A DNA stretch of 64,000 bases from the NCBI GenBank assembly GCA_014730345.1, contig WJIJ01000019.1, forward strand, positions 10,809 through 74,808, in the 5' to 3' direction. The first letter of the stretch is position 1. Each line of letters starts with the position of its first letter. Under the pieces are notes generated by a model. It did not search any database, was not told the DNA's origin, and saw only the letters and a list, made by a program, of their open reading frames with translations. Of the stretch, positions 8,125-45,935 are shown piece by piece. The stretch is from Candidatus Zixiibacteriota bacterium (lineage in GTDB: Bacteria; Zixibacteria; MSB-5A5; UM-FILTER-46-8). A program made the translations under genes and the position numbers.

Positions 8125-10290
8125 TTAAAACCTTATCGGCCGGGAAGACTCTCTTTTCTCTTTTTCCTTTAAATCCCGTTGGCGTTTGGGGATATATTCA
8201 CCCTTGTGGTCGAGGGGACACTGGAGCTTGGGTTCCTCGCCAAACCGGAAAACTTCTTCGATAACTTTCGGACAGCGTTCATTGGGAATCAGGCCGCTTT
8301 CATGACAAACATCGACTTTGACGATTCCGGCTGGCATGCGGAAATTCTGGACCGGGACGGAATCAAGAACTGTTTTCATAAATTCGGTCCATACCGGTAG
8401 AGCCGTAGTCGAACCTGTTTCTCCCCGCTCTCCGATTTTGGTTTTATCATCGAAACCTACCCAACAACCTGTTGTAACCTGGGGCACAAACCCAATAAAC
8501 CAGTTATCGGTCCACATGTCGGTGGTGCCGGTTTTCCCTCCCGCCGGGCGCCTGAAACCCCTGATACGGGCGCCGATTCCGGTTCCATGGTCGACTACAG
8601 TTTGAAGCATGTGGGTCATTATATAAGCGGTCTGCGATGATAGCACTTCCTCCTGGTAACCTCTTTCACGTTCCTCCACTATATTGCCATAGCGGTCAAT
8701 TATTTTGGTAATGAAAAATGGTTTGGTGCGTATCCCCCCGTTGGGAAACGTGGAGTAGGCCGCCGTCAGCTCAAGAAGATTAACTTCCGAGGTCCCGATT
8801 GCCAGCGAGGGCACCGGATTTAGCGGGGATTCAATGCCCATCTGATGCGCATAGAAAACCGTCTGTTGGGGGGTAACCCGGGGCTCCATTATCAACTTAA
8901 TCGCGATTAGGTTTCGTGATGCCCTGAGGCCCTCGCGAAGAGTCATTGCTCCCCTGAATGTATGGTCAATATTGTGCGGCCGCCATTCCTCATCCTGGCC
9001 GATCGGTATGACTACCGGTGAATCATTTAGTTTGTATGTTGGGCTGAAACCGTTGTCAATAGCGGTAGTAAATACAAATGGCTTGAAAGCCGATCCCGGT
9101 TGGCGCTGAGCTTGTATTGCCCGGTTGAATTTGCTTTCGGAGAAATCCCTTCCTCCGACCATGGTCAAAATGCCGCCGGTTTTATTATCAATGCAAACCA
9201 ACGCGCCCTGTATTTGTTTATACTCCCGCAGGGTGTCGCCTTCTTCGGTTATCTCTACAGGTATCGTATAATCCTCATCGTCGGGAGGATGGTTAGCTTC
9301 AACATTCATTTGCAAAGTATCCAGCAGATCATGTAAAATTGCTTCTCCCGCTATCTGCTTATCGTAGTCGAGGGTGGTGTATACAGTATAACCAGAGTTA
9401 TACAGGGCATCAGCGCCGTACCTTTCCTCTATATAACGCCTGATCATTTCGGTAAAATACGCCCCTACATACGCGTTTTCCTCTTTTTCAACCACTCCGA
9501 TAAGTTCATGTTTTATGCTGTCAGCGGCCTCCGGCGCGAGAACCCCGTAATCTACCATAGAACTAAGGACAATGTTCCTGCGCATCAGCGCCCGTTCCTC
9601 ATTCCGGAACGGATTGTACCTGTTGGGAGCTTTAAGCAAGCCGACGAGGGTGGCCGCTTCCTTGATATCTAACTCATCAGTATCTTTATCAAAATAAAAC
9701 CTCGAAGCCGATTGGATACCGTAGGTGTAACTTCCAAAGGGGCTTTGGTTTAGATACATGGCGATTATTTCGTCCTTGGAATAGTTCCGCTCGAGTTTTA
9801 TAGCGGTCAACGCCTCTTTTATTTTCCTTGATAGTGTTTGTTCCGGGGTAAGAAATAGCCTGCGGGCCAATTGCTGGGTAATTGTAGAACCGCCCTGAAT
9901 ATGGTCACTGGTAAACATAATTACGTATAAAGCGCGCAGGACGCCGGTAATATCGACTCCCCAATGGTCATAAAAACGTCGGTCTTCTACTGCTAAAAGG
10001 GCGTTTTTTAAATGGGGCGGGATATCATCATACGATATTAAAATCCGGTGCTCCCGGTAGAATTTTTTCAATAAAGTGCTGTCTTTAGCGTAAACTCTTG
10101 TGATTAAGCTGGGTTCGATATTGTGAAGTTGTTCAAATGATGGCAAATCTTTGCTGTAGGTATTAAAAATTAGTAAAAATACCAAAAGCGCGCTAAGGGC
10201 CATCGCGGCGAAAACAATACCTATTTTAACTATATGCCGCTTAAAAAAGGCCCAGTAACCGTTAAAAAGAGAGAAAAAATTGCTACTCAT
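8125..10290 (-). CDS. mrcA: Class A penicillin-binding protein (bifunctional transglycosylase/transpeptidase, PBP1A-like)
   Basis: 721 aa. N-terminal TM anchor. GT51 motifs (EDRRFYDHWGVD, GGSTITQQLAR). Transpeptidase SxxK (SAFKPF), SxN and KTGTT motifs. Convergent with pdp with only a 5-nt gap. Confidence 0.9.
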   Translation of the reverse strand: MSSNFFSLFNGYWAFFKRHIVKIGIVFAAMALSALLVFLLIFNTYSKDLPSFEQLHNIEPSLITRVYAKDSTLLKKFYREHRILISYDDIPPHLKNALLAVEDRRFYDHWGVDITGVLRALYVIMFTSDHIQGGSTITQQLARRLFLTPEQTLSRKIKEALTAIKLERNYSKDEIIAMYLNQSPFGSYTYGIQSASRFYFDKDTDELDIKEAATLVGLLKAPNRYNPFRNEERALMRRNIVLSSMVDYGVLAPEAADSIKHELIGVVEKEENAYVGAYFTEMIRRYIEERYGADALYNSGYTVYTTLDYDKQIAGEAILHDLLDTLQMNVEANHPPDDEDYTIPVEITEEGDTLREYKQIQGALVCIDNKTGGILTMVGGRDFSESKFNRAIQAQRQPGSAFKPFVFTTAIDNGFSPTYKLNDSPVVIPIGQDEEWRPHNIDHTFRGAMTLREGLRASRNLIAIKLIMEPRVTPQQTVFYAHQMGIESPLNPVPSLAIGTSEVNLLELTAAYSTFPNGGIRTKPFFITKIIDRYGNIVEERERGYQEEVLSSQTAYIMTHMLQTVVDHGTGIGARIRGFRRPAGGKTGTTDMWTDNWFIGFVPQVTTGCWVGFDDKTKIGERGETGSTTALPVWTEFMKTVLDSVPVQNFRMPAGIVKVDVCHESGLIPNERCPKVIEEVFRFGEEPKLQCPLDHKGEYIPKRQRDLKEKEKRESSRPIRF

Positions 10291-10490
10291 ACTACAAATA
10301 TCGACCTAAATTCAAAAGCTGTCAAGGAGAATAAAAAAAACATCGAACCCTATAAATTGATATTATTTTAACAATGATATGTTCCATGCCGATATACTTC
10401 AGTGTATGCAAAATTATATTCCGGGATAAGACGGCTTAACAGATTTATCTTATTGGCTAATTATTTATTATCATTAATCGAAGGGAGCTA

Positions 10491-12824
10491 ATGGCTGCTG
10501 TAGGCAAGAAACATGGCTATAAAACTGGAAACCGAATCAGGGGAAAAGTAGCTAAAAACAGGCTATCAACTTTTTCCACGGGAAATCGAGATATAGTTAA
10601 TGAATTATTGAACATCCTCGACAAGCCGGCTGTTATTTTATCAACCGATAATATAATTCTGAAAGCGAACGGGATGTTTTATGAACACCTCATCCCTGCT
10701 GATTATGAAATCGAGGGCAAAAATATAGAGACATGTGTGGAGGTATATCCTGAATTCAAAAAAATATTTAAATCGATTATCAATGTTAAAGAGAATGCTT
10801 CCAGGGAAAGGATTAAGAGCGTCAATGATATTTCGATTACCAGCTTTAATAACACCGCCTCCTATAATATCAGATTGAAGAGATCAAACTTAGGTATTTC
10901 AGAGCTTCCTTTCAGTGTTTTCACATTTGATAAAATAGAATCGAAAGAGCAGGAATTCGATATTTCAGAAATTTGGGCTAAGTACCTTGACAGCGTTTTA
11001 AAGAGTTCCATTGAGTATTCGATCATCACATTAGATAAGCAATTGAAGATAACATATCTGAATCCGGCGGCGGAAAAGGTTTTTGGTCTTTCCAGGTTCG
11101 ATGTTCTGGGCAAGCCTATTAGTGAAGTTGTACCCCAGGGTTACTGCCCGGATTCAGGATGGAATTCTTTGGTTAAGGCGCTTGAAACAGGTGATGAGTA
11201 CAGCTACACAGTAGCTCCCAAAGACAAAATGTATATGTTTTACGAGATAGTAATATCCAATATCCGGGATCAGAATGGAAACAGGGTTGGGTATTCCATA
11301 TTTATAAAAGATGTCTCCCGGCATAAAAAGAATATGCAGGTTCTCCAGCAGTCATACAGTTTTATTCAGAACGTGCTGGATTCGGTACCCGCGCGAATAG
11401 CGGTTGTAAACACGGATATGAAAGTGATGATGGTCAACAAAACCTGGAGAAAATTCGCGTCCGACACCGGTTATAAAGCCACAACATTTGGAGTGGGAGA
11501 GATATATGAAGATTTCTGCGCTGGTATAGACCTTACCGACGAAAACGAATTGAAGCAGGTCGCCGATGGGATACGAAACGTGATAGCGGACGATTACAGC
11601 GAGTTCAATCATGAATATTCCTGGAGAGGCCCTGAAGGACTAAACTGGTTCGAAGTTAAGGTATGCCCATTACTTTATGAAAACCGTCAATGGGCGATTG
11701 TCATGCATACCGATATTACCGAAAGACGCATAATACAGGATAAGCTCCTGCAGTATGGTGTTTTTGTCGAAAGTATAATCGAATCACTGTCACATCCCTT
11801 TTTCGTCGTGGATATCAATGATTATAAGATCGAGATGGCTAATTCAGCTACCTGGGAGAATTTCGAGAATCAAGGTAAACGGTGTTATTCATTAATGGGT
11901 GAAAATTGGCAGCCATGTAAGAACAAAACAGATCAGTGCCCTTTAGCGTTGGTAACAAAAACGAAAAAACCGGTCAGGATTGAATATCTTCATATCGAAA
12001 GAAACGGGAAAAAAGCGTACTATGAAATAAACGGGTTCCCGGTTTTTGACAACGACGGTGAGGTTATCAGGGCCATAGTATATATTCATGATATTACCAG
12101 GCGTAAAACCTACGATGAGGAACTCAAAAGGATTTTAAAAGACCTCGAAAGATCCAACGCGGAGTTACAGCAGTTCGCGTATGTCGCGTCCCACGATTTA
12201 CAGGAACCACTGCGTATGGTGTCGAGCTATTGCCAGCTTTTATCACAGCGATATAGTGAGTTGCTGGATGAAGACGGCAGGGAATTTATAAATTACGCTA
12301 TAGATGGGGCGGCGCGGATGAAAACGTTGGTTAACGACCTCCTCCAGTATTCGAGGGTGGGGACCCATGGCGAAGAGTTCAACAAATTCGATAGTCAAAA
12401 TACGTTGAAAAAGGCGATAAAAAATCTCGAGAATTATATAAAGGAAAAGAACGCGGAAATTTACTGTGATGAGCTTCCGGAGGTAATCGGCGATGAAATA
12501 CAGATAATGCGAGTTTTCCAGAACCTCTTGAATAATGCTTTGAAGTTTCATGGGCGGGAACGGCCCAAAATACACATTAACGCTGTACTTGAAGAGAATG
12601 ATTGTATATTCCGGGTAAAAGATAACGGCATAGGAATCGCCGAACATAACAGGGAGAGAGTATTTCAAATATTCCAAAGGTTGAACGCTCAATCGGAATA
12701 CTCCGGCACGGGTATAGGGTTGGCGGTCTGTAAAAAAATTGTTGAAAGACACGGTGGAAAAATCGGCGTGGAATCGGAGTTAGGTAAGGGAAGTACCTTT
12801 TATTTCTCTCTACCATTAAATTAG
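10491..12824 (+). CDS. Cytoplasmic multi-PAS sensor histidine kinase
   Basis: 777 aa with no obvious TM segments. Several PAS-like blocks. HisKA H-box [12 protein letters not shown]. HATPase_c N/G boxes ([33 protein letters not shown]). The start codon is uncertain. Confidence 0.85.
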
Positions 12825-12833
12825 GAGGTAATT

Positions 12834-13301
12834 ATGATAACAGATGCGGAAACTCGCCCAATAGAGATATTATTGGTTGAAGATAATCCCGGCGACGTGC
12901 GTCTGACCCAGGAGGCTCTCAAGGACAGTAAAATTTTCAACAATCTTAATATCGTAAACGATGGCGACCAGGCGATGGACTTTTTATTAAAAAAAGACAA
13001 ATACCATCAAAGCCCAACACCGGATATAATCCTGTTGGATTTGAATCTTCCAAAGAAAGACGGAAGGCAGGTGCTCGAGGAAATCAAGGCAAATCATGAT
13101 TTGATGAAAATTCCAGTGGTGATTTTAACGACATCTCACGCGGAGGAGGACATTATCAATACCTATAACCTCCATGCCAATTGCTATGTAACTAAACCCG
13201 TGGATCTAAACCAGTTCATCAAGGTTGTTAAATCGATTGAGGATTTTTGGTTCACTATAGTAAGGCTCCCGGTGGGTCATTCGACCGCCGTAGGAAGCTG
13301 A
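12834..13301 (+). CDS. Single-domain response regulator (REC only)
   Basis: 155 aa. ILLVEDNPGD ... ILLDLNLPKKDG ... K receiver motifs and no output domain. 9 nt after the kinase stop. Confidence 0.85.
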   Translation: MITDAETRPIEILLVEDNPGDVRLTQEALKDSKIFNNLNIVNDGDQAMDFLLKKDKYHQSPTPDIILLDLNLPKKDGRQVLEEIKANHDLMKIPVVILTTSHAEEDIINTYNLHANCYVTKPVDLNQFIKVVKSIEDFWFTIVRLPVGHSTAVGS

Positions 13302-13352
13302 TAGTATACAACATTTATTATAGGAACCGTTGTAAATTGGGGAGTAAGGACA

Positions 13353-15113
13353 ATGCCCGAAGCGATTGTTGATATTTTATTGATTGAAGATAATCCCGGT
13401 GATACCAGATTAATTGAAGAAATGCTCGCCGAATCCCCTGAGGTTAATTCGGGCACTTTTACCTACGAATTAACCTTCGCTGAGACGCTTGAGGAAGGAC
13501 TTCGGTTGTTGGAAAAAAATCCTATTGACATTGTACTTCTGGATCTATCTTTGCCCGATTCCCGGGGTTTAGCTACAATTATCAAGGTGAAAGAAAAGGC
13601 TCCGGATGTTCCCATTGTTGCCCTTACCGGTCTGGATGATCATATTCTCGCGGTAAAAGCACTGCAAAAAGGAGCCCAGGATTATCTCGTTAAGGGACAG
13701 GTAGACTCGGCCCTCTTAATAAGGAGCATGCGTTATGCTATCGAGCGGGAACTTATGACCAAAGACCTTGAGAGGGCGCGTAAACTGGAAAGGCATCTTG
13801 CGTATCATGATACTCTCACCAACCTTCCTAATCGTTCCCTATTCTATGACCGGCTCAACCAGGCTATCTCCTTCGCGAAAAGGTCCAATAATCGTGTCGC
13901 CGTTTTGTTCCTGGACCTGGATGGTTTTAAACGTATTAATGATTCCCTCGGGCACAGTAAAGGCGATATCCTTCTTCAGATATTCGCACAGCGGTTAAAA
14001 AGCACTATTCGCGAAAGCGATACTATCGCCCGGCTCGGCGGGGACGAATTTACCATCATTTTGGAAAACGTCCACAGTGGAAAGGACGCGGCAATGGTCG
14101 CCGAGAAAATCCTGAAGGTGCTTGCAGACCCTATCTCCGTCAGTGGATTTGAGGTCCATGTTTCGGCGAGTATAGGTATAAGCCTCTATCCCAATGACGC
14201 CCGGGATATTGAATCCCTGGTGAAAAACGCCGACCTGGCTATGTACCGGGCTAAAAACAGGGGAAAAAATAATTACCAGCTGTACAATCTTTCTATGGAC
14301 GCCCGGGCATCCGAACGGCTGGAGATTGAGAACTCATTGCGCAGGGGAATCGAGAATAATGAATTCCATATCCACTATCAACCGCAGGTGCACCTCCTTA
14401 CCGGGGAGTTAACCGGAGCTGAAGCGCTTGTTCGCTGGCGTCATCCAAAGTTAGGATTGGTTTATCCCGATTCTTTTATCCATATCGCGGAGGAGACGGG
14501 TTTGATAATACCATTGGGGCAGTGGGTTATTAACGAGGTATGCAGGCAAAATGTGCAGTGGCAGGAAAGCGGCATACCACCATTGAGGGTTTCTGTAAAC
14601 CTTTCGCCAAGGCAATTCGCGGATAAAGGTCTGGTTGAAACAATTTATGGCATACTCAATAAAACCGGTTTAAATCCTCTAACCCTTGAACTTGAGATAA
14701 CCGAAGGAAGCGCTATGGAGGATGTCGATTATACCGCGCTAACCCTGCAGGCTCTTAAGAAAATGGGGGTACGTATTTCGGTCGATGATTTTGGAACCGG
14801 ATATTCATCGATGGGTTATTTAAAAAAGTTTCCCATAGACAAACTTAAAATCGACCAGTCCTTCCTGCGTAATGTCCCCGATGACCAGGAAAACGTTGCC
14901 ATTACTACCGCTATCGTGGCATTGGCTCATAGTATGGGATTAAAAGTTGTCGCGGAAGGCGTGGAAAATGTTCACCAGGAGCGTTTTTTAAAAAACATTA
15001 AATGCGACGAAATGCAGGGTTTTCATTATTGCCGTCCGCTTGCTTTAGGCAGATTCAAAGATGTAATCAAAAACCGAAATAGAACCAGGATTTCTAACTC
15101 ACTGCAACTGTAA
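13353..15113 (+). CDS. Response regulator with GGDEF and EAL domains (c-di-GMP cyclase/phosphodiesterase)
   Basis: 586 aa. REC domain (ILLIEDNPGD...LLDLSLPD). Intact GGDEF motif (RLGGDEF) with an upstream RESD I-site-like motif. EAL domain (EALVRWRHP, ELEITE, DDFGTGYSS, QGFHYCRP). Confidence 0.9.
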   Translation: MPEAIVDILLIEDNPGDTRLIEEMLAESPEVNSGTFTYELTFAETLEEGLRLLEKNPIDIVLLDLSLPDSRGLATIIKVKEKAPDVPIVALTGLDDHILAVKALQKGAQDYLVKGQVDSALLIRSMRYAIERELMTKDLERARKLERHLAYHDTLTNLPNRSLFYDRLNQAISFAKRSNNRVAVLFLDLDGFKRINDSLGHSKGDILLQIFAQRLKSTIRESDTIARLGGDEFTIILENVHSGKDAAMVAEKILKVLADPISVSGFEVHVSASIGISLYPNDARDIESLVKNADLAMYRAKNRGKNNYQLYNLSMDARASERLEIENSLRRGIENNEFHIHYQPQVHLLTGELTGAEALVRWRHPKLGLVYPDSFIHIAEETGLIIPLGQWVINEVCRQNVQWQESGIPPLRVSVNLSPRQFADKGLVETIYGILNKTGLNPLTLELEITEGSAMEDVDYTALTLQALKKMGVRISVDDFGTGYSSMGYLKKFPIDKLKIDQSFLRNVPDDQENVAITTAIVALAHSMGLKVVAEGVENVHQERFLKNIKCDEMQGFHYCRPLALGRFKDVIKNRNRTRISNSLQL

Positions 15114-15566
15114 TTTATTATCCTGGAAATTTTTGTATCTCTCGATACATAATGATTCAACCCTGCGTGTAATCAATTGTAAATTATTATAGTACATCCG
15201 CTAACGGCGCAATAACCCTTATCATCTTTAGTTACCCTTTTTACAAAATTAATGGAATTTTGGCTCCGAATCGGCAAATTTAAGATTGACAATTATTATA
15301 AATATATTTAATTTAGTATATTCTCACCGGCGCTTATTAAGGATGATATCGTTGGTTTTGATCTTTTCAACAGGCCAGAACTTGTATTGATTCCGGGTTT
15401 AAAAATGGGGATGTTACCGGTGATGAGTTTACTGGAGTTTTGGTATACTCTAATATAAAGTTGATTTTTTGATTTTAAATCCTATTTGAGGGATTTTCTT
15501 CGACCTTTTTCTGATGTTTGGCAGTTTACTAATTATCGGCACCTTTTCGGAAAGCACGGAGGATTT

Positions 15567-18500
15567 ATGCGTAAGAGCATTCACCGCCTTCTAAAATACA
15601 CTAATTTCCTGATTACAATTATAACAATAGTTGTTGGTGGCTTCAGCGTAGATGTTGCCTCTGGCCGGCTGGCTGAAAACTTCTATTCCGGTGTACCTCT
15701 ACCGGGTGAATGCCTCGTGCAGTTTAGCGGCGATATTAATAAAACCGAGGCTATAAGCGCGTTGAATCGAAATAGTATACGGTTTAGATCCATGATTTTT
15801 GACCGCTACGCCAACCGTGCCCTTGTCAGCTATGATCCTGAAAGCGCTTCCGTGATTGAGGGAATTACTGATGGAAAAGCGAAAATATCCGGAATAAAGT
15901 ATGTTAGTCCAGCTTATGGCGATGAGAAATGCCGTGAATTTCTTATCGATGAGATCGCGGTCGTGTTGGAATCACCCGCGGGCATCGACAGGATTGAAAG
16001 CTGGTGTTCATTGAATGGTTGTTCAGTTATAAGAATTCGCCAGTGGTACGATTACACGGGCGTTTTGATCCGGGTGGATAATTTTTCAGAGGAGCGCTTA
16101 AGCACGGCATGCTCCGAATTAGCAGGTTTTGAAGAAAGTTATCTGGTTCAGCCCAATGTTTTAAAATTCTCCGATCCTGCATCGGTGAACCCTGATGATA
16201 CTTATTTCGATGACCAATGGGCGCTGAAAAATACCGGAATGAACGGATGGCTCGAGGATGCTGATATTGACGCGCCTGAAGGGTGGGAGTTGGCCCGGGG
16301 CAGTTCGGAAATAATTATCGCGGTGCTGGATATGGGAGTTGATGTCGAACACGAGGAATTTATCGATAAGATAGTTGCTCCGTACAACGCGGTTGACGGT
16401 ACGGATGAGCAAACCCCAAATGATTGGGACGCTCACGGCACATGCTGTGCCGGTATTGCCGCGGCCCGGACCGATAACAATAAAGGGATAGCCGGCGTAA
16501 ACTGGAACGCGCAAATTATGCCGATTAAGATCGGCTATACGCCTGAACCCGGGGGGCAGAGGATGGTTACTGATTACTGGGCATCCGATGGAATCCTGAC
16601 CGCCGCACAGAGGGGAGCGGATGTATTGAGTAATAGCTGGTATACAACGCCGTCGGACCTGATCGATCTGGCGTTCTATACAGTTTACCAGACCGGCCGC
16701 GATGGCAGGGGTTGCATTTCGGTTGCCGCCGCGGGGAATTTTAATTCCGATTTAGTCTATCCGGCAAGCTTGCCTGAAACTTTCGCCGTGGGCGCTACCA
16801 GCCCCTGCGATGAACGCAAGAGCCCTACTTCCTGCGATGGTGAAACATGGTGGGGAAGCAATTATGGCCAGGGACTCGACGTTATGGCCCCGGGATGTTA
16901 TATATGGACAACTGACATAACCGGAGGCGGCGGTTCCAATCCGGGAAATCCGGCTTATGGAGATCCGCTGGGGGATTACGTATCACGCTTCAGGGGCACA
17001 TCGTCGGCCACTCCCCAGGTTGCCGGTTTGGCGGCTATTATTTTATCTATCGATCCGGAGATGACCGCTTTTGAAGTACAGCAACTAATAATCGACAATA
17101 CCGATGATCTTGGGCCGCAGGGTTGGGATGAAGAATTTGGGTATGGAAGAATCAATATTTTCAAAACCATTTCAGCAATGGACAGGGTTATACGGGTAGA
17201 TGGAAATATACGCGAGGATCAAGTTTGGAAGCATGGAAATGTATACCTTGTTGAAAATTCTGTAAATATTGAGTCGGATGTTACCATTACTATAGAGGGG
17301 GGAACAGTTGTCAAGTTCAATCCCGAAGAGAGCATGGAGGTTAATGGGATTCTCAGGCTCGAGGGCACAGCCGGATACCCGGTTGTATTTACATCCTATC
17401 GCGACGATGAATATGGGGGGGACACGAATGGCGACGGTCCATCGAACGGGCAGATGTGCGATTGGGGCAAGATAACCATTAATAATCCGGCGAGTGAATT
17501 TCATGATGTAATTATGAGATATGCTGGTCATGACTGGGTTCCACTTCCTTATGACCGTTCACTGGAAACCGTGGCGCTCTATGATGGAATCCAGGATTGT
17601 ACATTTCAATATTGCGGAGGCAACAGCAGGGGAGTAATAGATATAAATGAGAGCGAAGATTTTCAATTTATTATTTCTGATTTGACATTCGAGAATTGTG
17701 ATTATTGGGCGATAAATTATAATGCCAGCCCCACGATTCCGCCCCATTTAGTAAATGTGGATGTTTCGGGGGCGCAGGGGATTTATATGCGCTATGAACA
17801 AAACGGTTCCCCGGTTATAGCCTATTGCGTTGTTTCCGATTTTAATTCTGGCGATGGAATCTATTATTACGGCGGCTACAGCTATGTTTCCCATCCGCAG
17901 ATATTTAACAACCGCGTAGACGGCGGTTCATACTCAACAGGGATTACTGTTTGGTCCGGCGGAGATCAGTCATCCATTAGATTCAATGAGATTATCAATA
18001 ACCAGGATGGGATAAGGCTGGAGAATTATTCGGGAGAAGTATACTCCAACAACATAGAAGGAAATAGCGGTTATGGCCTGATAAATAATTCAGGGATTAT
18101 AACCATAGACGCGGACAGCAACTGGTGGGGCGCGCCCGACGGACCCTCGGGAGGAGGCAGTGGATCGGGGGATGCTATCTCTGGAAATATAGCTTATCAG
18201 CCATACCTTACTGAACCTGCTTCATTTTACGGCCCCCCGGATATTGTCGTCAACCACGACGCTTTCCATGTTGACATGCATCCGGCCGAAATTATCGCTA
18301 AACAGTTCCGGATTACAAATCGCGGGCAAAGTGAACTCGTATACGATGTATACGAAATAGACAGTATTCCTGGTATGAACATGAATGATATCGATATACA
18401 AACTTTAAACAACCCCCTTTCGGATGATTATAAGAGGATTGCCGGTTATATAGTCGACCATGATAACCGTGATGATGTAAGTTGGCTGGAGCCCGTGCCC

Positions 18501-19367
18501 GTCTCCGGAGCGTTGGATACTGGTCAAACAAAGGACATTATGGTGAATTTCTATAGCGGTGAAATGGTTCCTGACAGGTATTCATGCCTGCTTTCTGTTG
18601 TCTCCAATGATCCGGCGAGGCCGGTTTACAATCTCCCCGTATATCTCAATGTGGAACAGCCAGTGGAGTTTTCGGTTATAATGCTCCCGGACGATCCACC
18701 GGCACATGTACCCCACACAGGCGGTGAGTTCGGTTACACGGGCACCTTGAGAAATAATACCGGCCAGTATCAAACCCTTGATTTGTGGTTAACGGTGCAG
18801 ACTCCAGTGGGCGAGGTCCTGGGGCCATTTTATAAAGTTGATAACATACGGATGGCTCCTTATGAAACAATGGTTGCCGCTAATTTATCCAAATATGTGC
18901 CGGGAGATATGATGGCTGGCGACTACATCTTCAGCGCTATCGGCGGTGATTACCCTGACAAAACCGACTCTTGCAGCTTCATCGTTACCAAGGATAATTT
19001 CCGGGGCAATAAAGACGATGGCAATGAGAAAATCTCGTATAGCGGTGAAGCAGTTTTCATTGGCGAGCCGTGGTTTAGAAACAGCGGCGATGAAAACCTG
19101 CCCCTTGTTTTATCACTCGGTAATAATTATCCAAATCCTTTTAACGCGGCCACTTCGATTTCCTACGAACTGCCGTACCCGGCAGATGTCCGCCTTGAGG
19201 TCTATAACCTGATGGGGCAAAGGGTTACGAGGTTGGCTGGCGGTTACCATAAAGCCGGGCGTTATAGTGTTAACTGGGACGCGTCCGATTATTCCAGCGG
19301 GGTCTATTTCTACAGGCTGACCGCGGGCGATGCGACTATAGTTAAGCGGATGACGCTATTGAAGTAA
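15567..19367 (+). CDS. Secreted subtilisin-like serine protease (S8) with I9-like propeptide, parallel beta-helix region and T9SS type-A C-terminal sorting domain
   Basis: The ATG at 15567 gives a signal/anchor peptide MRKSIHRLLKYTNFLITIITIVVGG; the track ORF begins at an upstream TTG at 15486. S8 triad blocks are present (AVLDMGVD, HGTCCAGIAAA, GTSSATPQVAGLAAI). The central region carries repetitive beta-helix-like segments. The C-terminus NYPNPFNAATSISYELP...GVYFYRL...KRMTLLK matches the Por_Secre_tail family. Confidence 0.88.
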   Translation: MRKSIHRLLKYTNFLITIITIVVGGFSVDVASGRLAENFYSGVPLPGECLVQFSGDINKTEAISALNRNSIRFRSMIFDRYANRALVSYDPESASVIEGITDGKAKISGIKYVSPAYGDEKCREFLIDEIAVVLESPAGIDRIESWCSLNGCSVIRIRQWYDYTGVLIRVDNFSEERLSTACSELAGFEESYLVQPNVLKFSDPASVNPDDTYFDDQWALKNTGMNGWLEDADIDAPEGWELARGSSEIIIAVLDMGVDVEHEEFIDKIVAPYNAVDGTDEQTPNDWDAHGTCCAGIAAARTDNNKGIAGVNWNAQIMPIKIGYTPEPGGQRMVTDYWASDGILTAAQRGADVLSNSWYTTPSDLIDLAFYTVYQTGRDGRGCISVAAAGNFNSDLVYPASLPETFAVGATSPCDERKSPTSCDGETWWGSNYGQGLDVMAPGCYIWTTDITGGGGSNPGNPAYGDPLGDYVSRFRGTSSATPQVAGLAAIILSIDPEMTAFEVQQLIIDNTDDLGPQGWDEEFGYGRINIFKTISAMDRVIRVDGNIREDQVWKHGNVYLVENSVNIESDVTITIEGGTVVKFNPEESMEVNGILRLEGTAGYPVVFTSYRDDEYGGDTNGDGPSNGQMCDWGKITINNPASEFHDVIMRYAGHDWVPLPYDRSLETVALYDGIQDCTFQYCGGNSRGVIDINESEDFQFIISDLTFENCDYWAINYNASPTIPPHLVNVDVSGAQGIYMRYEQNGSPVIAYCVVSDFNSGDGIYYYGGYSYVSHPQIFNNRVDGGSYSTGITVWSGGDQSSIRFNEIINNQDGIRLENYSGEVYSNNIEGNSGYGLINNSGIITIDADSNWWGAPDGPSGGGSGSGDAISGNIAYQPYLTEPASFYGPPDIVVNHDAFHVDMHPAEIIAKQFRITNRGQSELVYDVYEIDSIPGMNMNDIDIQTLNNPLSDDYKRIAGYIVDHDNRDDVSWLEPVPVSGALDTGQTKDIMVNFYSGEMVPDRYSCLLSVVSNDPARPVYNLPVYLNVEQPVEFSVIMLPDDPPAHVPHTGGEFGYTGTLRNNTGQYQTLDLWLTVQTPVGEVLGPFYKVDNIRMAPYETMVAANLSKYVPGDMMAGDYIFSAIGGDYPDKTDSCSFIVTKDNFRGNKDDGNEKISYSGEAVFIGEPWFRNSGDENLPLVLSLGNNYPNPFNAATSISYELPYPADVRLEVYNLMGQRVTRLAGGYHKAGRYSVNWDASDYSSGVYFYRLTAGDATIVKRMTLLK

Positions 19368-19772
19368 TCCGAATTCAGAATCCGTTGTTCGGGGATTAAT
19401 GGGGCGAAATATAGTTTCATGTCTACTAAAATTAGGCTTGACATCGAGCATGTAATTTGTAATTTATTTAGATTGTTTTAATGCCGCTGTAGAAAAGGTT
19501 TTGCCGCGATATTCGGATTTCGCCGCAGGGCTTATGCCGTTTAACTGTATATAATATAATCCGCGTTTCGATATCGGAATTTTGATAGTAATTAACAGAT
19601 CCAAACAAAGGGAAAACGGCTGATACGGCGGTTAAGCAGGTGGTGGTTTACCCGATATTAATCTGGCCACTGTTTTCTCTGACGCTTATGGAGAAGCGCA
19701 TACTCAGGGCTGTTGGCAAGGATGAAGAATAAGTAATTGCGCCGAATTAATCTAAGCCCTGCTGATCTAACC

Positions 19773-20861
19773 ATGAAGAATTGGAAACTACTTAAAACCA
19801 TCCCGGTTTTTATACTTGCCTTCTTATCAATACTTGTTTCTATCCAATTCGGGGGTTGCGGCAATCAAAGCATCAGTACTATTAAAAAGTACATAAAACA
19901 GGATAATTTCCAGGGAGCGAAATCTGAGTTAACCGAGCTTCTAAAGCGCGACCCGGTGAATAACGAAGCGCTGTTTCTCATGGGCAAGACCTGCGCCCAA
20001 TTGAAGGAATTCCGGTGTATGAATGAAAATTTCTCGCGGTCGTTGGAAATAGGCGACAGGTTCAGCAGGAAGATAGAGTACATAAAACTGGATAATTGGG
20101 CTTATTATTTTAATATGGCGATGGCATCGTATAGAATTCATGATTATGACAAGGCAATCACATTCGGTGAGTACGCGCTGGCTATAGCCGACACGGCGTA
20201 TGCTCATTTTTATTATCCTGATTTTGAAAATGTTACGCGAATGCAACTGGTTATGGGAGAATCATTCCGGGAGCTGGGGAGAATCGAGGATGCCAACAGG
20301 TATTACCGGTTGTGCCTGGGAAATAATCCGGACCAATTGCTCTGTTTAAACAGGCTGGCGGATTATTATTATTACAAAACGGCTTATGACAGCGCGTTGA
20401 TATTTTACCAGCGCATCGGCAGGATACGTCCTTATGATGAAAACGCTGCGGTACGGGCGGTTAAGTGTGTTGAAAATATTGATGGAGTGGAGGCCGCGAT
20501 CGAGATGGCTAACAGCAAGCTTTCCTCATCATCGAGAAGCGCGATATTAACGCGTTATATAGTTAATCTATACCTCCGGGAAGGAAATTTCAACGGTGCG
20601 GAATTCTGGCTGGAGAATGGTTATGTCGGAGAAAAGGATTATGATTATTACTTCATGCTGGGTCAGTGTAAATACAACCTTATGGATTTTGATAGCGCGA
20701 AGCAGTTGTTTGAAAAAGCTGTGGGTTTATCGCCCACTGGAAAAGAGGCGTGGGAATACCTCCAGATAATCTATGGCAATATTGGAGATATCGAAAAATA
20801 TGAATATGCACGGAGCCGGGTTAATTCTCTTCCGGGAAATGAGGATCAGTTAAAGGACTAA
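19773..20861 (+). CDS. TPR-repeat lipoprotein
   Basis: Start chosen at MKNWKLLKTIPVFILAFLSILVSIQFGGCG (lipobox-like FGGC). Multiple TPR-like helical repeats. Its stop overlaps the start of the next gene (TAATG). Confidence 0.6.
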   Translation: MKNWKLLKTIPVFILAFLSILVSIQFGGCGNQSISTIKKYIKQDNFQGAKSELTELLKRDPVNNEALFLMGKTCAQLKEFRCMNENFSRSLEIGDRFSRKIEYIKLDNWAYYFNMAMASYRIHDYDKAITFGEYALAIADTAYAHFYYPDFENVTRMQLVMGESFRELGRIEDANRYYRLCLGNNPDQLLCLNRLADYYYYKTAYDSALIFYQRIGRIRPYDENAAVRAVKCVENIDGVEAAIEMANSKLSSSSRSAILTRYIVNLYLREGNFNGAEFWLENGYVGEKDYDYYFMLGQCKYNLMDFDSAKQLFEKAVGLSPTGKEAWEYLQIIYGNIGDIEKYEYARSRVNSLPGNEDQLKD

Positions 20862-26163: not shown

Positions 26164-26940
26164 ATGAAAATCGGGATACTAACTATATTGATGACAGCGC
26201 TTTTATTTATGCCATTTTGCGTTTTGTTCGCGCAAACCGGTGATCAGACCGCGGATGAAAGCGCGTCAGCCATTGAGAATACAACTGTGCAGGATACTGT
26301 AGCGCAGGACTACAGCATCGGCGGAATCCTGGCAAGGGCCGGCAAGACAAGATATTTTATTTATGGAGTTCTTGCCCTGGGAGTATTTTTCATAATTTTT
26401 CAGTTTATATTGCTGACCCTCGACAGGAAAAGGTCGGCAGGATTGCGCAAATCGGATCTGGAAAAGATGCCTGTAGAGTCTATACGGAAACGCCTCGAGA
26501 CCGAACCGGATTCATCGGTCAACAGCGCGCTCCTGATGCTTTACCGGGTTTATTCCTCGTCCCGGGATATCAGTGCGTTGAATGAGGAAATAAATTCGTT
26601 TCTCGGGGGCATGAAATCGAGGTTTTCAACATTTACGAATTGGATGAATTTCCTGTCCGATGCCGCTGGAGCTCTGGGTTTATTGGGTACCGTTATTGGT
26701 ATGTTTACCACATTTTTCGGCGCGGATACCGGGTTTGATAACCGCAAAATACTTGACGGTATGGGTATCGCCCTTATCACCACCTTACTCGGCATTATCG
26801 TAAGTTTGATACTAAACCTGCTTACAGTACTGGTAACCAACTACCATAACCGGAATCTCGAATACGTTATGGAAAAATCGGATGAATTCCGCATTATCGC
26901 CGCCCGCAGCCAGAGAAGGGATGAAGCTCCCCGGGCGTAG
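26164..26940 (+). CDS. exbB: MotA/TolQ/ExbB-family proton channel
   Basis: 258 aa. Signal peptide plus three TM helices. Diagnostic LGLLGTVIGMFTTF and GIALITTLLGIIVSLILN motifs. Strong RBS AAGGAG. Confidence 0.8.
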   Translation: MKIGILTILMTALLFMPFCVLFAQTGDQTADESASAIENTTVQDTVAQDYSIGGILARAGKTRYFIYGVLALGVFFIIFQFILLTLDRKRSAGLRKSDLEKMPVESIRKRLETEPDSSVNSALLMLYRVYSSSRDISALNEEINSFLGGMKSRFSTFTNWMNFLSDAAGALGLLGTVIGMFTTFFGADTGFDNRKILDGMGIALITTLLGIIVSLILNLLTVLVTNYHNRNLEYVMEKSDEFRIIAARSQRRDEAPRA

Positions 26941-26958
26941 AATGGAGATTAAAGCAAA

Positions 26959-27339
26959 ATGTTGCTGAGATTGGTAGACATAACCCTTATCCTGCTTTTC
27001 GGATTTATATCCATTAGTTCTATAGAACCACGCACCAATATACGCCTGCCCGAAGCGGAATATGCCGAATTCGACTCCCAAAAACGGAGAGCGGTTGAAA
27101 TTATCGGGATAGATAACCAGGGACGTATCCTTATCAGCGAAGAGAGATACCGGGTGGATAGAGAACTCCTGCTCCCCTACCTTATTCAAAAACGAGAACA
27201 ATTCGATTCGCTGAGAGTAAAAATCAGGGCAGAACGCGACGCGGAGATCATAGATGTCAAAAAGGTCGCATTGCTCTGTGATTCCCTGAGAATACCCAAG
27301 AGCATCGAGGTGCGTATGCCGGAGGGAAGCAGGCGATGA
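26959..27339 (+). CDS. exbD: ExbD/TolR-family protein
   Basis: 126 aa. N-terminal RLVDITLILLFGFI TM typical of ExbD. ATGA overlap with the next gene. Confidence 0.6.
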   Translation: MLLRLVDITLILLFGFISISSIEPRTNIRLPEAEYAEFDSQKRRAVEIIGIDNQGRILISEERYRVDRELLLPYLIQKREQFDSLRVKIRAERDAEIIDVKKVALLCDSLRIPKSIEVRMPEGSRR

Positions 27340-27731
27340 AACGCAAAGGGATAATAATCCGATTAATTGACGTTGTTTTGATAATCCTCCTCGGATTTTT
27401 AGCCATTTCCGATTTCCAGGCTAAAACGCCCATCGACCTTCCCGATTTAACTCCGGATGAGGAGATTGTCAAGGAACCGGAACTCGAGGAAATTCCGATA
27501 GCGGAAGTGGTAATTGACAACGAAAACAAGTTTATTTTTTCCGTCAACCAGGCTGACACAATTATCCTCGACAACAAGGAAGACCTTGAATATACCATAT
27601 ATGATTTTTATTCGCGGGATACATCTATGGTAGTGCTAATCCTGCCCCGGGACAGCTCCGAGGTGCAGGCCACCGTGGATGTAATCGATATATGCGAAAA
27701 ATATGAAATTCCCAGAAATCTGACATTTTAA
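27336..27731 (+). CDS. exbD: ExbD/TolR-family protein (second copy)
   Basis: 131 aa. N-terminal RLIDVVLIILLGFL TM. Directly follows the first ExbD-like gene. Confidence 0.6.
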   Translation: MKRKGIIIRLIDVVLIILLGFLAISDFQAKTPIDLPDLTPDEEIVKEPELEEIPIAEVVIDNENKFIFSVNQADTIILDNKEDLEYTIYDFYSRDTSMVVLILPRDSSEVQATVDVIDICEKYEIPRNLTF

Positions 27732-28673
27732 ATGTACTACGCAAAAAACGAAAATAAGATAAAGCTAATATCGGCGATAATCACGGTGATTATACTGCCG
27801 CTTGTTTACTTCGCCGTAAAAAACCAGACCCCATTCGTGTTTTTACGGCAGATGGCCGAAGAATCCTCCAGGTGGATAACAATTATGAGGCCCGAACCGC
27901 CGCCTGAACCGCCTGATGTGCGCGATGAGCTTTTACGCAGGCTGGAGAGTTTAAAGCAGAGAACCCAGCAAGCGCTCCTTGAGCGAATGGAACGATTGAC
28001 AGAGGAGTTTCAGAAAAATCCGGAACGTATCCAGATTGATAATCGCCCGCAATTCGCACTTCAGCAGGACAGGCTTCGGGACGCAATCGACCGCGTAGGT
28101 TCCGGAAAGCGCGCCAACAGCAAGATACGATCCGGGGGTATAGATTTCACTCCCGGGGGAAATTATAATTTCGGAAACAGCAGTCAGGGCGGCAGTTTTT
28201 CCGGCAAGCGGGAGGGTGTTGCCCGCAAAGATGTCAATGCCGTTACCCCGGGCGATATGAACTGGGCGGAATTCGGTGATGTTAATCTCGACGATGATAT
28301 CTCCAGCGACTATGATAGATTATTGCAGTGGGTTAAAAACCATCCGAAATCTCTTCCAAATGTTTTCATTAACTTGATGGAAGGCGAACGGACTGATCCC
28401 CAGACGATAATTAGGCATAAACACGCCGATATATATCTGTTAATTAATGACCGGGCCAAGCTGGTTAATATCGCTGTTGTAAACAGCGACAGCGTGGCTG
28501 TTATGATCGACCATGGCCTGGCATTGGAAATACGCAAACTTGACCTTGGCGAGGTTTTCCGGAGGAACGAGGACTCGATCATCGGTCTCGATGTCAATCC
28601 CGCTCAAACCCGCAGGAGTTTATACGAGCCGTGGTATACGGCGTTTCGATCATGGTGGGAAGGAATAAGATGA
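27732..28673 (+). CDS. TonB-like protein: N-terminal TM anchor, proline-rich spacer (RPEPPPEPPD), non-canonical C-terminal domain
   Basis: 313 aa. TM at residues about 12-32 and a Pro/Glu-rich segment as in TonB. The C-terminal 120 aa do not resemble the TonB_C fold by eye. Positioned after exbB-exbD-exbD. Confidence 0.45.
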   Translation: MYYAKNENKIKLISAIITVIILPLVYFAVKNQTPFVFLRQMAEESSRWITIMRPEPPPEPPDVRDELLRRLESLKQRTQQALLERMERLTEEFQKNPERIQIDNRPQFALQQDRLRDAIDRVGSGKRANSKIRSGGIDFTPGGNYNFGNSSQGGSFSGKREGVARKDVNAVTPGDMNWAEFGDVNLDDDISSDYDRLLQWVKNHPKSLPNVFINLMEGERTDPQTIIRHKHADIYLLINDRAKLVNIAVVNSDSVAVMIDHGLALEIRKLDLGEVFRRNEDSIIGLDVNPAQTRRSLYEPWYTAFRSWWEGIR

Positions 28674-30268: not shown

Positions 30269-30994
30269 ATGCCGGGTTATAATAAAGTAATGATTGCCAT
30301 ACTGGGAATAATCATGTTCCCGATGGCTATATTTGCCCAACCGTCGGTTGTTCCCCATAAAGTTGATAAAGCGGTGATAACTGATAAGGTACTTATACGG
30401 GAAATTGCCGCCGAGATGTATATCACCGTTGATATTGAAACCGTGGAGAAGATGGAGATTATTGATATCACCGGGGATGGTTTCGGTAAAAATGATATCG
30501 CTAAAGTTTTTCCTTCAGAGCGATTCTTCCAGCTAAGCGAAATATCCGATGAACTCGAAGAGGAGATGGGCAGTTGGAAAAGGGAGGCCGCCGGTGGTGT
30601 TGTATTTGAGAACCTGCCCGCCGATGAATTCCGTGAGATTTACAACGGGCGGAAACTACCCCAATATCTTTTGCTGGCCAATATCGGCTATGCCCTGGAA
30701 CAGATTTACGGCGACAGTTTGCCCATTGAGCTCTACTACAGCAAGGACACAACAGGAATCATATTCCATTACTGGGGTTACGTGGAAGACTCGCTGGTTT
30801 ATCGTCCCGGGAAAAGGGGAGATGTAGCCAGGACTACGGCTTATGATTTGATGTATGTGTTGAAGAATGATACCACGGTTGTGGTGGATACGACGATGTA
30901 CGATATAATGTTCATTTATAAAACACTGACGGACACGGTCTACCTGCCCGGTCCTGGAAAATTACCACAGGGGAGAGGGCCAATAAATGAATAA
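30269..30994 (+). CDS. Hypothetical secreted protein
   Basis: 241 aa. N-terminal signal peptide. No recognisable domain. Tightly packed in the array and overlaps the next gene by 8 nt. Confidence 0.35.
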   Translation: MPGYNKVMIAILGIIMFPMAIFAQPSVVPHKVDKAVITDKVLIREIAAEMYITVDIETVEKMEIIDITGDGFGKNDIAKVFPSERFFQLSEISDELEEEMGSWKREAAGGVVFENLPADEFREIYNGRKLPQYLLLANIGYALEQIYGDSLPIELYYSKDTTGIIFHYWGYVEDSLVYRPGKRGDVARTTAYDLMYVLKNDTTVVVDTTMYDIMFIYKTLTDTVYLPGPGKLPQGRGPINE

Positions 30995-43402: not shown

Positions 43403-45727
43403 ATGAAACTTTCACGCGTATTTGCTTTATCGATTCTCAGCCTTCTGGTGGTTTCTTCCTTCGCTTTTGGCGGCTTGACCCAGGAAGAACTGGCTAAAAA
43501 GATCGCCGACAATCCCAACATGTACAATGACAAGGGCGATTTGATCACCACCCCGGTAGGCCAGGAAGAGATATTTGGCTCGGGTAACGACTCCTACGGT
43601 AATACCTGGATCGATTCCGATGAACCAGGTGGTCCCGCTTATAACTGGATAGATGTAACCAGCCTTCCGGGAGCGACCCAGCTTTCTCCCGGCGATGACT
43701 GGAACAGCGGTCCTCTTGCCTTGGGCTTTAATGTATTCCAATATGGCAACAGCTACAGCAATCTCTATGTTTGCTCCAATGGCTGGACCAGCTTCACCAG
43801 TACTTTGACCACCTATTTTAACCAGCCTTTACCGTACGCGTCGGGCCCCTTTGATCTGGTTGCTCCCTACTGGGACGACCTTAATCCGAGTGCCGGCGGC
43901 CAGATGTGGTTCTGGACCAATAGCACCGACAGCGCTATCGTAGCCTGGCTGGGCGTACCTCATTATTCCAACGACGGCGCCGTTACCATGGAAATGATCA
44001 TAACCGGTCAGCAGATATTCTTCATGTATGACTCTTTAAACTTCCCGGTTGCTGGTAACGGAAGCGGTACCATTGGTATGCAAAACCAGGATGGTACCGT
44101 GGGAATGCAGATTCGTTATAATACTGTATTCACCTATGACGACTATGCCGTCCAGATTGACCTGGCTCTGCCGGCCGCTGATGACATAGTCGGTGATGAA
44201 ATTCTTGCCGGTATTATGTATGTCGACAGCGCGTACACTCCGCAGGCTGTCTTCACCAACGCCGGTACCAATGACCAGACCGATGTACCTGTATGGTTTG
44301 AAATCTGGTTCGGCGGAAGCATGGTCTACCAGGATGATACTACAATCGACCTTCTTTCCGGTCAGAGCGGAACTGCTACATTCATGGATTATACTCCGAC
44401 CACACCGGGTTATTATGTTCTTGAAGCTTATGCCGCGTTACCGGGCGATGAAAATCCTGGCAACGACTATTGCCCGACTGATTCGACATTCGCTTATAAC
44501 TTCCCGACTCCTCAGCACTTCGAGGACTTCGAAGCTAACAACGGCGCTTTCCTTGGCGACGGCGACTGGGAGTGGGGCGCACCGACCTCTGGTCCTGGAA
44601 GCGCGTACTCCGGTTCCAACGTATGGGCTACCGTACTTGGCGGAGACTATAACATAAGCACTCTTTCCGAGTTGATCACTCCGTACTTCTACCTGAGTGA
44701 TGCCAGCCCGACCCTCGCCTTCTGGCATTGGTTCGACACCGAAGCCAGTTATGACGGCGGTAACATGGAAATCACCACCGACAACGGCGCGACCTGGACA
44801 ATTATACCCAACCTGCCGTACACCGGTACTGCCAACTCCGCCAACCCGATTGGCAATGGCGAACCGATTATTACCGGTCATGACCAGGGATTCTGGGAAT
44901 TCGTTATCGTTGACCTGAGCGCTTATGCCGGCGATACCGTACGCTTCAAATATGTGTTCGGCGCCGATGGTAGTGTAACCTATCCCGGCTGGTATTTCGA
45001 TGATTTCCTCGTAGCCGGCGGTGAGAGAATTGACGTAGCGGCCCTGACCTGTAATGTCAATATCCTTACCCCGACTGTACCGTCTATCAATGGCGATATT
45101 GTGTTCGATCTCGAAATCACCAATACCGGTACTCTCGTATATCCTGAAGTCTACGGTGAGATCTATCCGACCATAGGCGACTGCGCTACTGGTCAGGTCT
45201 TTGACTTCAACCTCGCCAGACAGCTTACCGCTGATCTGCAGATCGGCGAATCCTTCGTCGGCAGATACTTCTATCATGTGGTAGATGTAAGCGGCTTAGG
45301 CTTGAGCCAGGTTGCTCTTACCGCTGATGTCGGTATGGGTGTCGATGACTATCAGGCCCAGTGCTGTGATGAGTTCCACTTCACCAATCCGTGGGGACGC
45401 AGTGGCGGCGAAGTCATTTGGGGTGACAAGTGGCTCGATCGTGAAGACGGAATGGCTCTGCCGACTGTAACCAGCCTCGGCCAGAACTATCCGAATCCGT
45501 TCAACGCTACCACCAGCATTCCGTTCAACCTCGCCGAGGAAGGCAATGTAACCATAAAGGTTTACAACCTTACCGGTCAGCTGGTTGAAACCCTTGTTGA
45601 TGGTAAGTACTCCGCTGGCAACCATGTAGCCACCTGGGATGCTTCTACCGTATCCTCCGGCGTCTACTTCTACAGCCTTGAAGCGGGCGACTACAGCACC
45701 ACCAAGAAGATGAATCTCTTGAAGTAA
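43403..45727 (+). CDS. Hypothetical secreted protein with MAM-like/jelly-roll domain and T9SS type-A C-terminal sorting domain
   Basis: 774 aa. Signal peptide MKLSRVFALSILSLLVVSSFAFG. A central W..G.......W..FW...D...EITTDNGATW block. C-terminus NYPNPFNATTSIPFNLAEEGNVTIKVYNLTGQLV...GVYFYSL...KKMNLLK. Confidence 0.6.
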   Translation: MKLSRVFALSILSLLVVSSFAFGGLTQEELAKKIADNPNMYNDKGDLITTPVGQEEIFGSGNDSYGNTWIDSDEPGGPAYNWIDVTSLPGATQLSPGDDWNSGPLALGFNVFQYGNSYSNLYVCSNGWTSFTSTLTTYFNQPLPYASGPFDLVAPYWDDLNPSAGGQMWFWTNSTDSAIVAWLGVPHYSNDGAVTMEMIITGQQIFFMYDSLNFPVAGNGSGTIGMQNQDGTVGMQIRYNTVFTYDDYAVQIDLALPAADDIVGDEILAGIMYVDSAYTPQAVFTNAGTNDQTDVPVWFEIWFGGSMVYQDDTTIDLLSGQSGTATFMDYTPTTPGYYVLEAYAALPGDENPGNDYCPTDSTFAYNFPTPQHFEDFEANNGAFLGDGDWEWGAPTSGPGSAYSGSNVWATVLGGDYNISTLSELITPYFYLSDASPTLAFWHWFDTEASYDGGNMEITTDNGATWTIIPNLPYTGTANSANPIGNGEPIITGHDQGFWEFVIVDLSAYAGDTVRFKYVFGADGSVTYPGWYFDDFLVAGGERIDVAALTCNVNILTPTVPSINGDIVFDLEITNTGTLVYPEVYGEIYPTIGDCATGQVFDFNLARQLTADLQIGESFVGRYFYHVVDVSGLGLSQVALTADVGMGVDDYQAQCCDEFHFTNPWGRSGGEVIWGDKWLDREDGMALPTVTSLGQNYPNPFNATTSIPFNLAEEGNVTIKVYNLTGQLVETLVDGKYSAGNHVATWDASTVSSGVYFYSLEAGDYSTTKKMNLLK

Positions 45728-45785: not shown

Positions 45786-45935
45786 TTCAGTTCACCTCCG
45801 CTTCAGCTATAAATCGCGCCATTAAAAACTACTTGATTATTCGGGGGAATTTTGTATATTGAAAAGGCGTAGTAGCGTAGATATTTAGGACATAATGTAT
45901 TGGTAGATATAAAATTAGAAAATTCGGAGGTTGTC

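Follow-up and report, generated by a model that had tools for sequence, protein, structure and literature searches.

ExbB/ExbD-type motors power nutrient import through TonB, envelope maintenance through TolA, and gliding in Myxococcus, and the energising of adhesin carriers that belong to type IX secretion systems (abbreviated T9SS) has only lately been worked out in Bacteroidota. Here we analyze a stretch of 64,000 nucleotides (hereafter the window) from a Candidatus Zixiibacteriota bacterium (contig WJIJ01000019.1, positions 10,809 to 74,808 of the forward strand), in which genes for ExbB and two ExbD proteins are followed by the gene of a 313-amino-acid (aa) protein, referred to as X, that has the architecture of TonB and a C-terminal domain that is not TonB_C. 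The four genes are part of a recurrent nine-gene locus with a PorP/SprF-family carrier and a surface-adhesin-like protein, to which the motor may be directed.

The principle of a swapped C-terminal domain is already known from TonB-like transducers with a von Willebrand A (vWA) C-terminal domain, whose genes have tolQ and a pair of tolR-like genes as neighbours (Williams-Jones et al. 2025, PMC12204202). X shares with these a TonB/TolA-like anchor, a linker and, in place of TonB_C, a C-terminal domain that is globular. It differs from them in its predicted ~125-aa alpha2-beta6-alpha domain and in its phyla (Zixibacteria, KSB1 and Balneolales), and no link to a T9SS PorP or type-B cargo has been reported for the vWA family. 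For the Agl-Glt system, it has been proposed that a motor of one TolQ-like and two TolR-like proteins, together with connectors resembling TolA, acts via an outer-membrane platform on an integrin-like adhesin and drives its exposure (PMC9946355). The likeness of our locus to Agl-Glt (AglRQS, GltG/GltJ, CglB) is architectural only and consists of one ExbB-like and two ExbD-like subunits, inner-membrane connectors of TolA/TonB type, TPR proteins, an outer-membrane beta-barrel and a surface adhesin; GltG and GltJ are predicted to have TolA-like folds, whereas the C-terminal domain of X is not TolA-like, and the surface protein here is an FG-GAP/CHU_C T9SS cargo rather than a vWA lipoprotein adhesin. 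In the PorP-family carrier SprF of Flavobacterium, mechanical energy enters via the periplasmic C-tail (PMC12635249). The SprB-SprF system, energised by GldLM via the GldJ/K/N track, also has a PorP-family carrier beside an adhesin with a type-B C-terminal sorting domain (CTD) (PMC12635249, PMC9143113), but the motor here is of ExbB/ExbD type, the carrier bears a 300-aa extension and no Cys-x-Cys tail, only one Cys being present in the window PorP, and GldK/J-like FGE-sulfatase genes, whose scores are far below the cut-offs, adjoin the locus in Zixibacteria alone. What is new here is the predicted C-terminal fold, the phyla, the pairing with a T9SS PorP and its type-B cargo as constant partners, and a split between His and Thr in the anchor that goes with whether a private motor is present.

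The motor genes and protein X

The genes at 26164-27731 encode what defines a 5:2 motor, namely an ExbB-family channel subunit and ExbD-family subunits with a transmembrane Asp (Table 1). The ExbB translation contains LGLLGTVIGM and begins with a signal-peptide-like N-terminus, and the start of ExbD2 overlaps the stop of ExbD1 by 4 nucleotides. ExbD1 belongs to an orthologous group separate from that of ExbD2, and the order ExbD1 to ExbD2 is kept in all but one related locus. This ExbB/ExbD gene set with two distinct ExbD orthogroups is established as a bona fide motor. An earlier note on the window, made from the sequence alone, had placed four genes here, and the open reading frame (ORF) listing agrees exactly with their coordinates. 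It had called ExbB canonical on the strength of LGLLGTVIGM, which the translation and a PF01618 match above the cut-off bear out; the two ExbD proteins, described as short, have the lengths given (126 and 131 aa) but fall only slightly under the typical ExbD length. A scan of genome contigs with ExbB returned solely an unrelated Aeromonadales locus. In most relatives ExbB is ~500 aa long, with an extra N-terminal region showing faint Big_1/Ig-like matches (e.g., in loci L007, 7595-9154; L010, 6378-7946; L011, 7617-9197; and L058, 7661-9154), a region absent from the ExbB of the window (258 aa) and of L002. Just upstream of the nine-gene locus, L007 has on its minus strand (1-920) a second ExbD gene adjoining that of a protein of 373 aa, which matches the X model in its N-terminal part; candidate identities for this protein are a paralogous transducer and a canonical TonB.

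X, identical to NCBI GF307_02300, is tightly packed with the motor genes. Its ATG lies on the base right after the ExbD2 stop, and its own stop overlaps the next start as ATGA, as read from the sequence. The N-terminal half of X is established as TonB/TolA-like in topology. The defining layout of TolA and TonB is an anchor, a "motor box" beta-strand, domain II and a globular domain (PMC12204202). Members of the X family share an N-in anchor with a Pro just after it, a beta-prone motif, a linker rich in Pro/Glu/Lys and then in Gly/Ser, and the C-terminal domain. The beta-prone motif is YDEINWTRF in most members (e.g., YDEINWTRF.P.P) and RWITIMR in the window X, where WITIMRP is followed by PEPPPEPP (residues 48-61), and an equivalent motif is found family-wide 15-25 residues past the anchor. 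E. coli TonB presumably carries ISVTMVTPADLEPP at the equivalent place. Residues 47-61 of X may serve as a motor box, a role proposed from their resemblance in sequence. The earlier note had assigned a TonB N-terminal anchor and an (EP)n/PEPP spacer to this protein. The membrane helix is indeed present, but the SHLS motif S-x3-H-x6-L-x3-S is not, as T18, V25 and V29 stand in it and S-x3-T replaces the S-x3-H of TonB; PEPPPEPP lies at residues 54-61, but there is no (EP)n repeat. Downstream of PEPPPEPP is a segment predicted to be helical at low confidence by AlphaFold2 from the single sequence, and the full-length model of X made in this way has a pLDDT (predicted local distance difference test score) of 42.8.

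TonB_C (PF03544/TIGR01352) is a small alpha/beta fold to which TonB boxes are bound by strand addition. The C-terminal domain of X is not TonB_C by sequence or by profile, nor by its predicted structure. No match of X to TonB_C or TonB_2, and no significant match of any kind, was found in Pfam or NCBIfam at E<=1. None of 40 family members matches TonB_C or TonB_2 at E<=0.1, and no convincing Pfam family was found in any of the 40. Neither a sequence search with X nor a profile search with its C-terminal domain returned anything relevant from the PDB, and hhalign of the C-terminal-domain profile against E. coli TonB gave a probability of 0.25%. When residues 186-313 were modelled by AlphaFold2 with the 40-sequence alignment, a pLDDT of 93.7 and a pTM (predicted template modelling score) of 0.88 were obtained. 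The model combines an antiparallel sheet of six strands with a pair of helices at the N-terminus and one long helix at the C-terminus. It differs from the small C-terminal fold of TonB and TolA, and fold searches with it gave no TonB or TolA match. The domain has no Pfam match to vWA, and the model is not Rossmann-like. W200, D260, G273, I283, F305 and W308 are invariant in the C-terminal domain of the family. As judged by comparison with the PDB, the predicted fold appears to be new, with no Pfam family and no close match there. These results uphold the observation of the earlier note that the last ~120 aa of the protein lack TonB_C (the peptide it quoted is found in X), and neither of the two outcomes that it had named as refuting was obtained: the Pfam search for TonB_C and TonB_2 gave no match, and structure prediction gave a confident model without a TonB-like fold.

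The 40 members of the X family were recovered at E<1e-3 by an exhaustive HMMER search of 1.84 billion representative proteins. The family is rare, and it is visible only through this search; in a word-index homologue search, X alone recovers itself only, and the 40-sequence profile recovers 6. All named carriers are metagenome-assembled genomes (MAGs), and they come from Zixibacteria, KSB1 and Balneolales only. These phyla belong to the FCB (Fibrobacterota-Chlorobiota-Bacteroidota) group, in which T9SS occurs. The window X is counted as a member of the family because of its synteny with L002 and its confident model.

A conserved nine-gene locus

About 55 related loci from Zixibacteria, KSB1, Balneolales and unbinned metagenomes were collected by exact-sequence look-ups and a metagenome scan, the latter run with a 10-sequence subset of the X-family alignment. 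They were annotated by hidden Markov models built from the window proteins; 45 metagenome loci carry annotation by twelve custom models only, and eight related loci carry Pfam annotation. In the counts below, the number of loci with a feature is given over the number of loci with enough flanking DNA.

The recurrent gene order is a TPR protein, an FG-GAP/Ig/CHU_C protein (~1100 aa), PorP/SprF (~600 aa), ExbB, ExbD1, ExbD2, X, a TPR lipoprotein (~500 aa) and Y (~200-330 aa). A TPR lipoprotein directly follows X in 43/43 loci, and Y follows the TPR lipoprotein in 33/35. ExbD directly precedes X in 30/38 loci, and PorP takes this place in the other 8. A PorP-like gene is found within the locus in 25/25 cases and a CHU_C cargo in 17/18. 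The first gene, TPRup, has an ortholog upstream of the adhesin in 14 of the 18 loci with at least 8 kb of upstream sequence, including L058 (a Balneolales MAG) and L059, and in these two, housekeeping genes with no relation to the cluster mark its two ends. The genes of the adhesin and PorP, still adjacent to each other, have changed to the other side of the motor module in L010 and L011. A literature search found no paper describing the nine-gene locus, and a promoter and terminator scan over it performed no better than on shuffled sequence.

In the window, a PorP/SprF barrel stands beside a type-B CTD protein, the CHU_C assignment of the latter being marginal. The adhesin matches FG-GAP_3 (8e-16) and, below the cut-off, TIGR04131 (2.8e-6), and CHU_C matches are recorded for its orthologs in L007, L010, L011 and L059. 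The window PorP has a conserved C-terminal extension of ~300 aa (about residues 290-604), presumed to be periplasmic, with a helical part and a FlgD_ig-like part. In L012, a locus of 16 kb in which neither a barrel gene nor one for CHU_C was detected, this extension is found as a stand-alone secreted protein (7068-8033) directly upstream of exbB. Its separate occurrence there suggests a tie of the motor module to the extension rather than to the barrel.

The TPR lipoprotein has, family-wide, a Cys in a lipobox-like context near the N-terminus. Of the 44 distinct TPR lipoproteins, 43 have in their N-terminal region a highly conserved short box (V/I)P(A/P)G(V/I)D(S/T), scanned as [PA]xG[VI]D[ST]; it lies 12-27 residues past the lipobox Cys in the 20 members with a script-located Cys. 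From its sequence, the box would be an extended peptide on a flexible tether, resembling a strand-addition docking site. A candidate identity as PorW/SprE was rejected, as the NCBIfam match (1.6e-4, 20 bits against a 250-bit cut-off) is ascribed to the TPR repeats. In L003 (KSB1; 735-5800), three tandem TPR lipoprotein paralogues, two of them with the N-terminal box, lie after X and before Y and an adhesin gene.

In nine related loci, PorP, X, the TPR lipoprotein and Y are found with no exbB or exbD nearby. Eight of them (L019-L021 and L023-L027) come from one metagenome, and the ninth is L059. Their X copies are longer, at ~400-415 aa (about 9170-10414 in most), and 7 of the 8 metagenome loci have S-x3-H in the X anchor, as do TonB and TolA. 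The L059 X (P0034), which is identical to the L024 copy, also has S-x3-H. Among the 36 loci with their own exbB-exbD-exbD, the same anchor position is Thr in 33 and Ser in 2, with 1 not resolved by the script, and His in none. The retention of the TonB-type His in motor-less copies suggests that their X docks on an ExbB-type motor encoded elsewhere. The split fits a scheme in which the His type would dock on a shared housekeeping motor and the Thr type on a co-evolved private one.

Table 1. Features of the nine-gene locus and of neighbouring genes, with positions in the window.
Feature	Position	Strand	Evidence and remarks
TPR protein (TPRup), first gene of the locus	19737..20861	+	many TPR Pfam matches
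Surface-adhesin-like protein, 1140 aa	20861..24283	+	Big_5, FG-GAP propeller, Ig-like domains, CARDB, C-terminal CHU_C (T9SS type-B sorting)
PorP/SprF-family outer-membrane carrier, 604 aa	24292..26106	+	PF11751 1.2e-16, residues 99-298, 61.6 bits (cut-off 22.3)
ExbB/TolQ/MotA-family proton channel subunit, 258 aa	26164..26940	+	PF01618 3.6e-13, 49.8 bits (cut-off 22.9)
ExbD1, 126 aa	26959..27339	+	PF02472 1.1e-8, 35.6 bits (cut-off 25.4); transmembrane Asp in LVDI
ExbD2, 131 aa	27336..27731	+	PF02472 7.9e-11, 42.6 bits (cut-off 25.4); transmembrane Asp in LIDV
X, 313 aa, TonB architecture, non-TonB C-terminal domain	27732..28673	+	no Pfam, NCBIfam or PDB sequence match
X membrane anchor, residues ~10-30	27759..27821	+	hydropathy scan and alignment; S14-x3-T18 at the TonB/TolA S-x3-H position
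X residues 47-61, RWITIMRPEPPPEPP	27870..27914	+	beta-prone strand, then short Pro/Glu stretch; position of the TonB/TolA motor box and domain II start
X C-terminal domain, residues 186-313	28287..28670	+	predicted alpha2-beta6-alpha fold (AlphaFold2 model)
TPR lipoprotein, ~528 aa	28670..30256	+	TPR Pfam matches; lipobox IMVAC; N-terminal box VYVPIPPGIDT; start overlaps X stop (ATGA)
Y, 241-aa secreted protein	30269..30994	+	signal peptide; no Pfam or NCBIfam match
Three FGE-sulfatase-domain proteins, 348, 282 and 653 aa	30987..34841	+	PF03781 7e-30, 4e-48 and 6.5e-25
Por_Secre_tail proteins	15486-19367, 43403-45727, 45900-48884, 60993-63260		two S8 subtilases, MAM/NIDO protein, sortilin/BNR protein

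The client of the motor

The order exbB-exbD-exbD-tonB is common, and the locus shares with the Ton system an ExbB channel, the ExbD transmembrane Asp, an N-in anchored, Pro-rich partner encoded right after exbD and, in some X family members, the S-x3-H anchor motif. With its TonB-like N-terminal half, X could then be a highly divergent TonB serving TonB-dependent transporters encoded elsewhere. PF03544 readily detects typical TonBs, yet it matches none of the 40 family members, and neither the confident model with its six strands and three helices nor the profile alignment by hhalign points to TonB. Furthermore, the window X has Thr for the anchor His, and neither the ORFs of the 64-kb window, as scanned against Pfam, nor the eight related loci that carry Pfam annotation show a TonB-dependent transporter; the near-invariant neighbours are instead the PorP/SprF carrier, the type-B-CTD (CHU_C) adhesin, the TPR lipoprotein and Y. 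Fold and context together make it unlikely that this is an ordinary Ton system that has diverged, and we leave that reading only a slim chance. The earlier note had suggested that the motor energises a client outside the TonB-dependent transporters, and this is supported by the fold, the negative TonB_C searches and the gene context, from which the client proposed below is also deduced.

The arrangement of a motor, a transducer that would span the periplasm and have a domain II predicted to be helical in part, and then a TPR outer-membrane lipoprotein gene (CpoB-like) also recalls TolQ-TolR-TolA-Pal and the order tolQRA...cpoB, and the pairing of X with the TPR lipoprotein is the tightest link in the locus. 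CpoB has been proposed to be ancestrally a lipoprotein, and Bacteroidota have no recognisable tol-pal (PMC12204202). The motor and X might accordingly position or tension the TPR lipoprotein in a CpoB- or Pal-like role and stabilise the outer membrane, with the adhesin and PorP genes merely co-located. X has, however, no TolA_C fold, and neither a TolB propeller nor an OmpA-like Pal is seen in the window locus or the Pfam-annotated loci. Chance co-location is itself improbable, since PorP (25/25) and CHU_C (17/18) persist in the rearranged loci (L010 and L011) and the motor-less ones (L019-L027). We consider such envelope maintenance quite improbable. X might also act independently of the motor, as an inner-membrane scaffold or assembly factor for a complex of PorP, adhesin and TPR protein, with ExbB and ExbD serving another partner or acting via ExbD. 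This would accord with the nine loci in which X follows PorP without motor genes nearby, and with a window X that has no key His, a short linker and a helical segment predicted at low confidence. On the other hand, the motor-less copies keep the TonB-type S-x3-H (7/8), ExbD2 abuts X without a gap in the window and X comes directly after exbD in 30/38 loci, and the beta-prone motif past the anchor is conserved, so that a motor-independent X appears unlikely to us.

We lean, with some reserve, toward the reading that X, driven by the motor, is a force transducer in the style of Ton and Tol whose target has become the adhesin-carrier complex. X is taken as part of the motor module because of the tight packing of the genes (the 4-nucleotide overlap, the abutting start and the ATGA overlap), and retargeting is plausible because there are precedents in the energy input through the SprF C-tail (PMC12635249) and in the actuation of an adhesin by Agl-Glt (PMC9946355). 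An ExbB pentamer and an ExbD1/ExbD2 heterodimer, in a presumed 5:2 stoichiometry, would turn proton flow into movement of X, which would be anchored in the inner membrane and span the periplasm. Its unrelated ~125-residue alpha2-beta6-alpha domain would stand in for TonB_C and engage the outer-membrane module through the N-terminal box of the lipoprotein, the PorP extension or the periplasmic protein Y. The PorP/SprF carrier would hold the FG-GAP type-B-CTD adhesin on the cell surface, and force would go to this adhesin-carrier complex, not to the plugs of TonB-dependent transporters. The output could be lateral propulsion or movement, exposure or tensioning of the adhesin, or its release from the T9SS translocon. 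That X is coupled to the motor is putative and deduced from the sequences, as are its partner and the physiological output. A more specific version, in which a self-contained, GldLM-independent machine of Zixibacteria, KSB1 and Balneolales uses a Ton-type 5:2 motor to pull PorP/SprF via a transducer of new fold and so propel or actuate a T9SS type-B integrin-like adhesin, is possible but doubtful.

Several observations weigh against a motor-driven X acting on the adhesin-carrier complex. The window X has Thr18 at the position where the literature calls His essential for binding of TolA and TonB to the motor, and its putative motor box is a likeness in residues only. The correlation of His or Thr with the absence or presence of motor genes comes mainly from one clade of one metagenome and amounts to roughly one evolutionary event. 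The window X is also the most divergent member of its family, with 20-27% identity in the C-terminal domain, and all carriers of X are uncultured MAGs. Lastly, the CHU_C match of the window adhesin is marginal (7e-6, 26.5 bits), just under the 27-bit cut-off.

Neighbouring genes and implications

The genes of three FGE-sulfatase-domain proteins, the third of which (653 aa) has fn3 domains and a lipobox, come next to Y in the window. FGE-sulfatase genes adjoin the locus only in two Zixibacteria loci, the window and L002 (8583-12739), and are outside its conserved core. They are weakly alike to GldK and GldJ, with scores far below the GldK/GldJ cut-offs, and their identification as these proteins was rejected. 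Their adjacency might nevertheless be meaningful by analogy, GldK and GldJ being components of the SprF track in Bacteroidota. Four more large secreted proteins of the window have type-A T9SS sorting domains (Por_Secre_tail), and the genome therefore leans heavily on T9SS. Just upstream of this secretion and adhesin region, at 10491-15113, lie genes for a histidine kinase rich in PAS domains and for a response regulator that has GGDEF and EAL domains, a possible control point for surface behaviour through cyclic di-GMP.

The analysis defines families that have no Pfam model, namely the C-terminal domain of X, Y, the PorP extension and the lipoprotein box. If X is indeed a retargeted transducer, the list of clients of 5:2 motors would become longer, and the X family would show, in a concrete instance, how the C-terminal domain can be swapped within the TonB/TolA lineage, with the His-bearing copies that have no motor of their own as an apparent intermediate. 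If the self-contained machine exists, it would be a third independently evolved power source for adhesin movement or gliding, beside GldLM/GldJKN in Bacteroidota and Agl-Glt in Myxococcus. Retargeting of X would also hint at how T9SS-bearing phyla outside Bacteroidota might move or deploy their surface adhesins.

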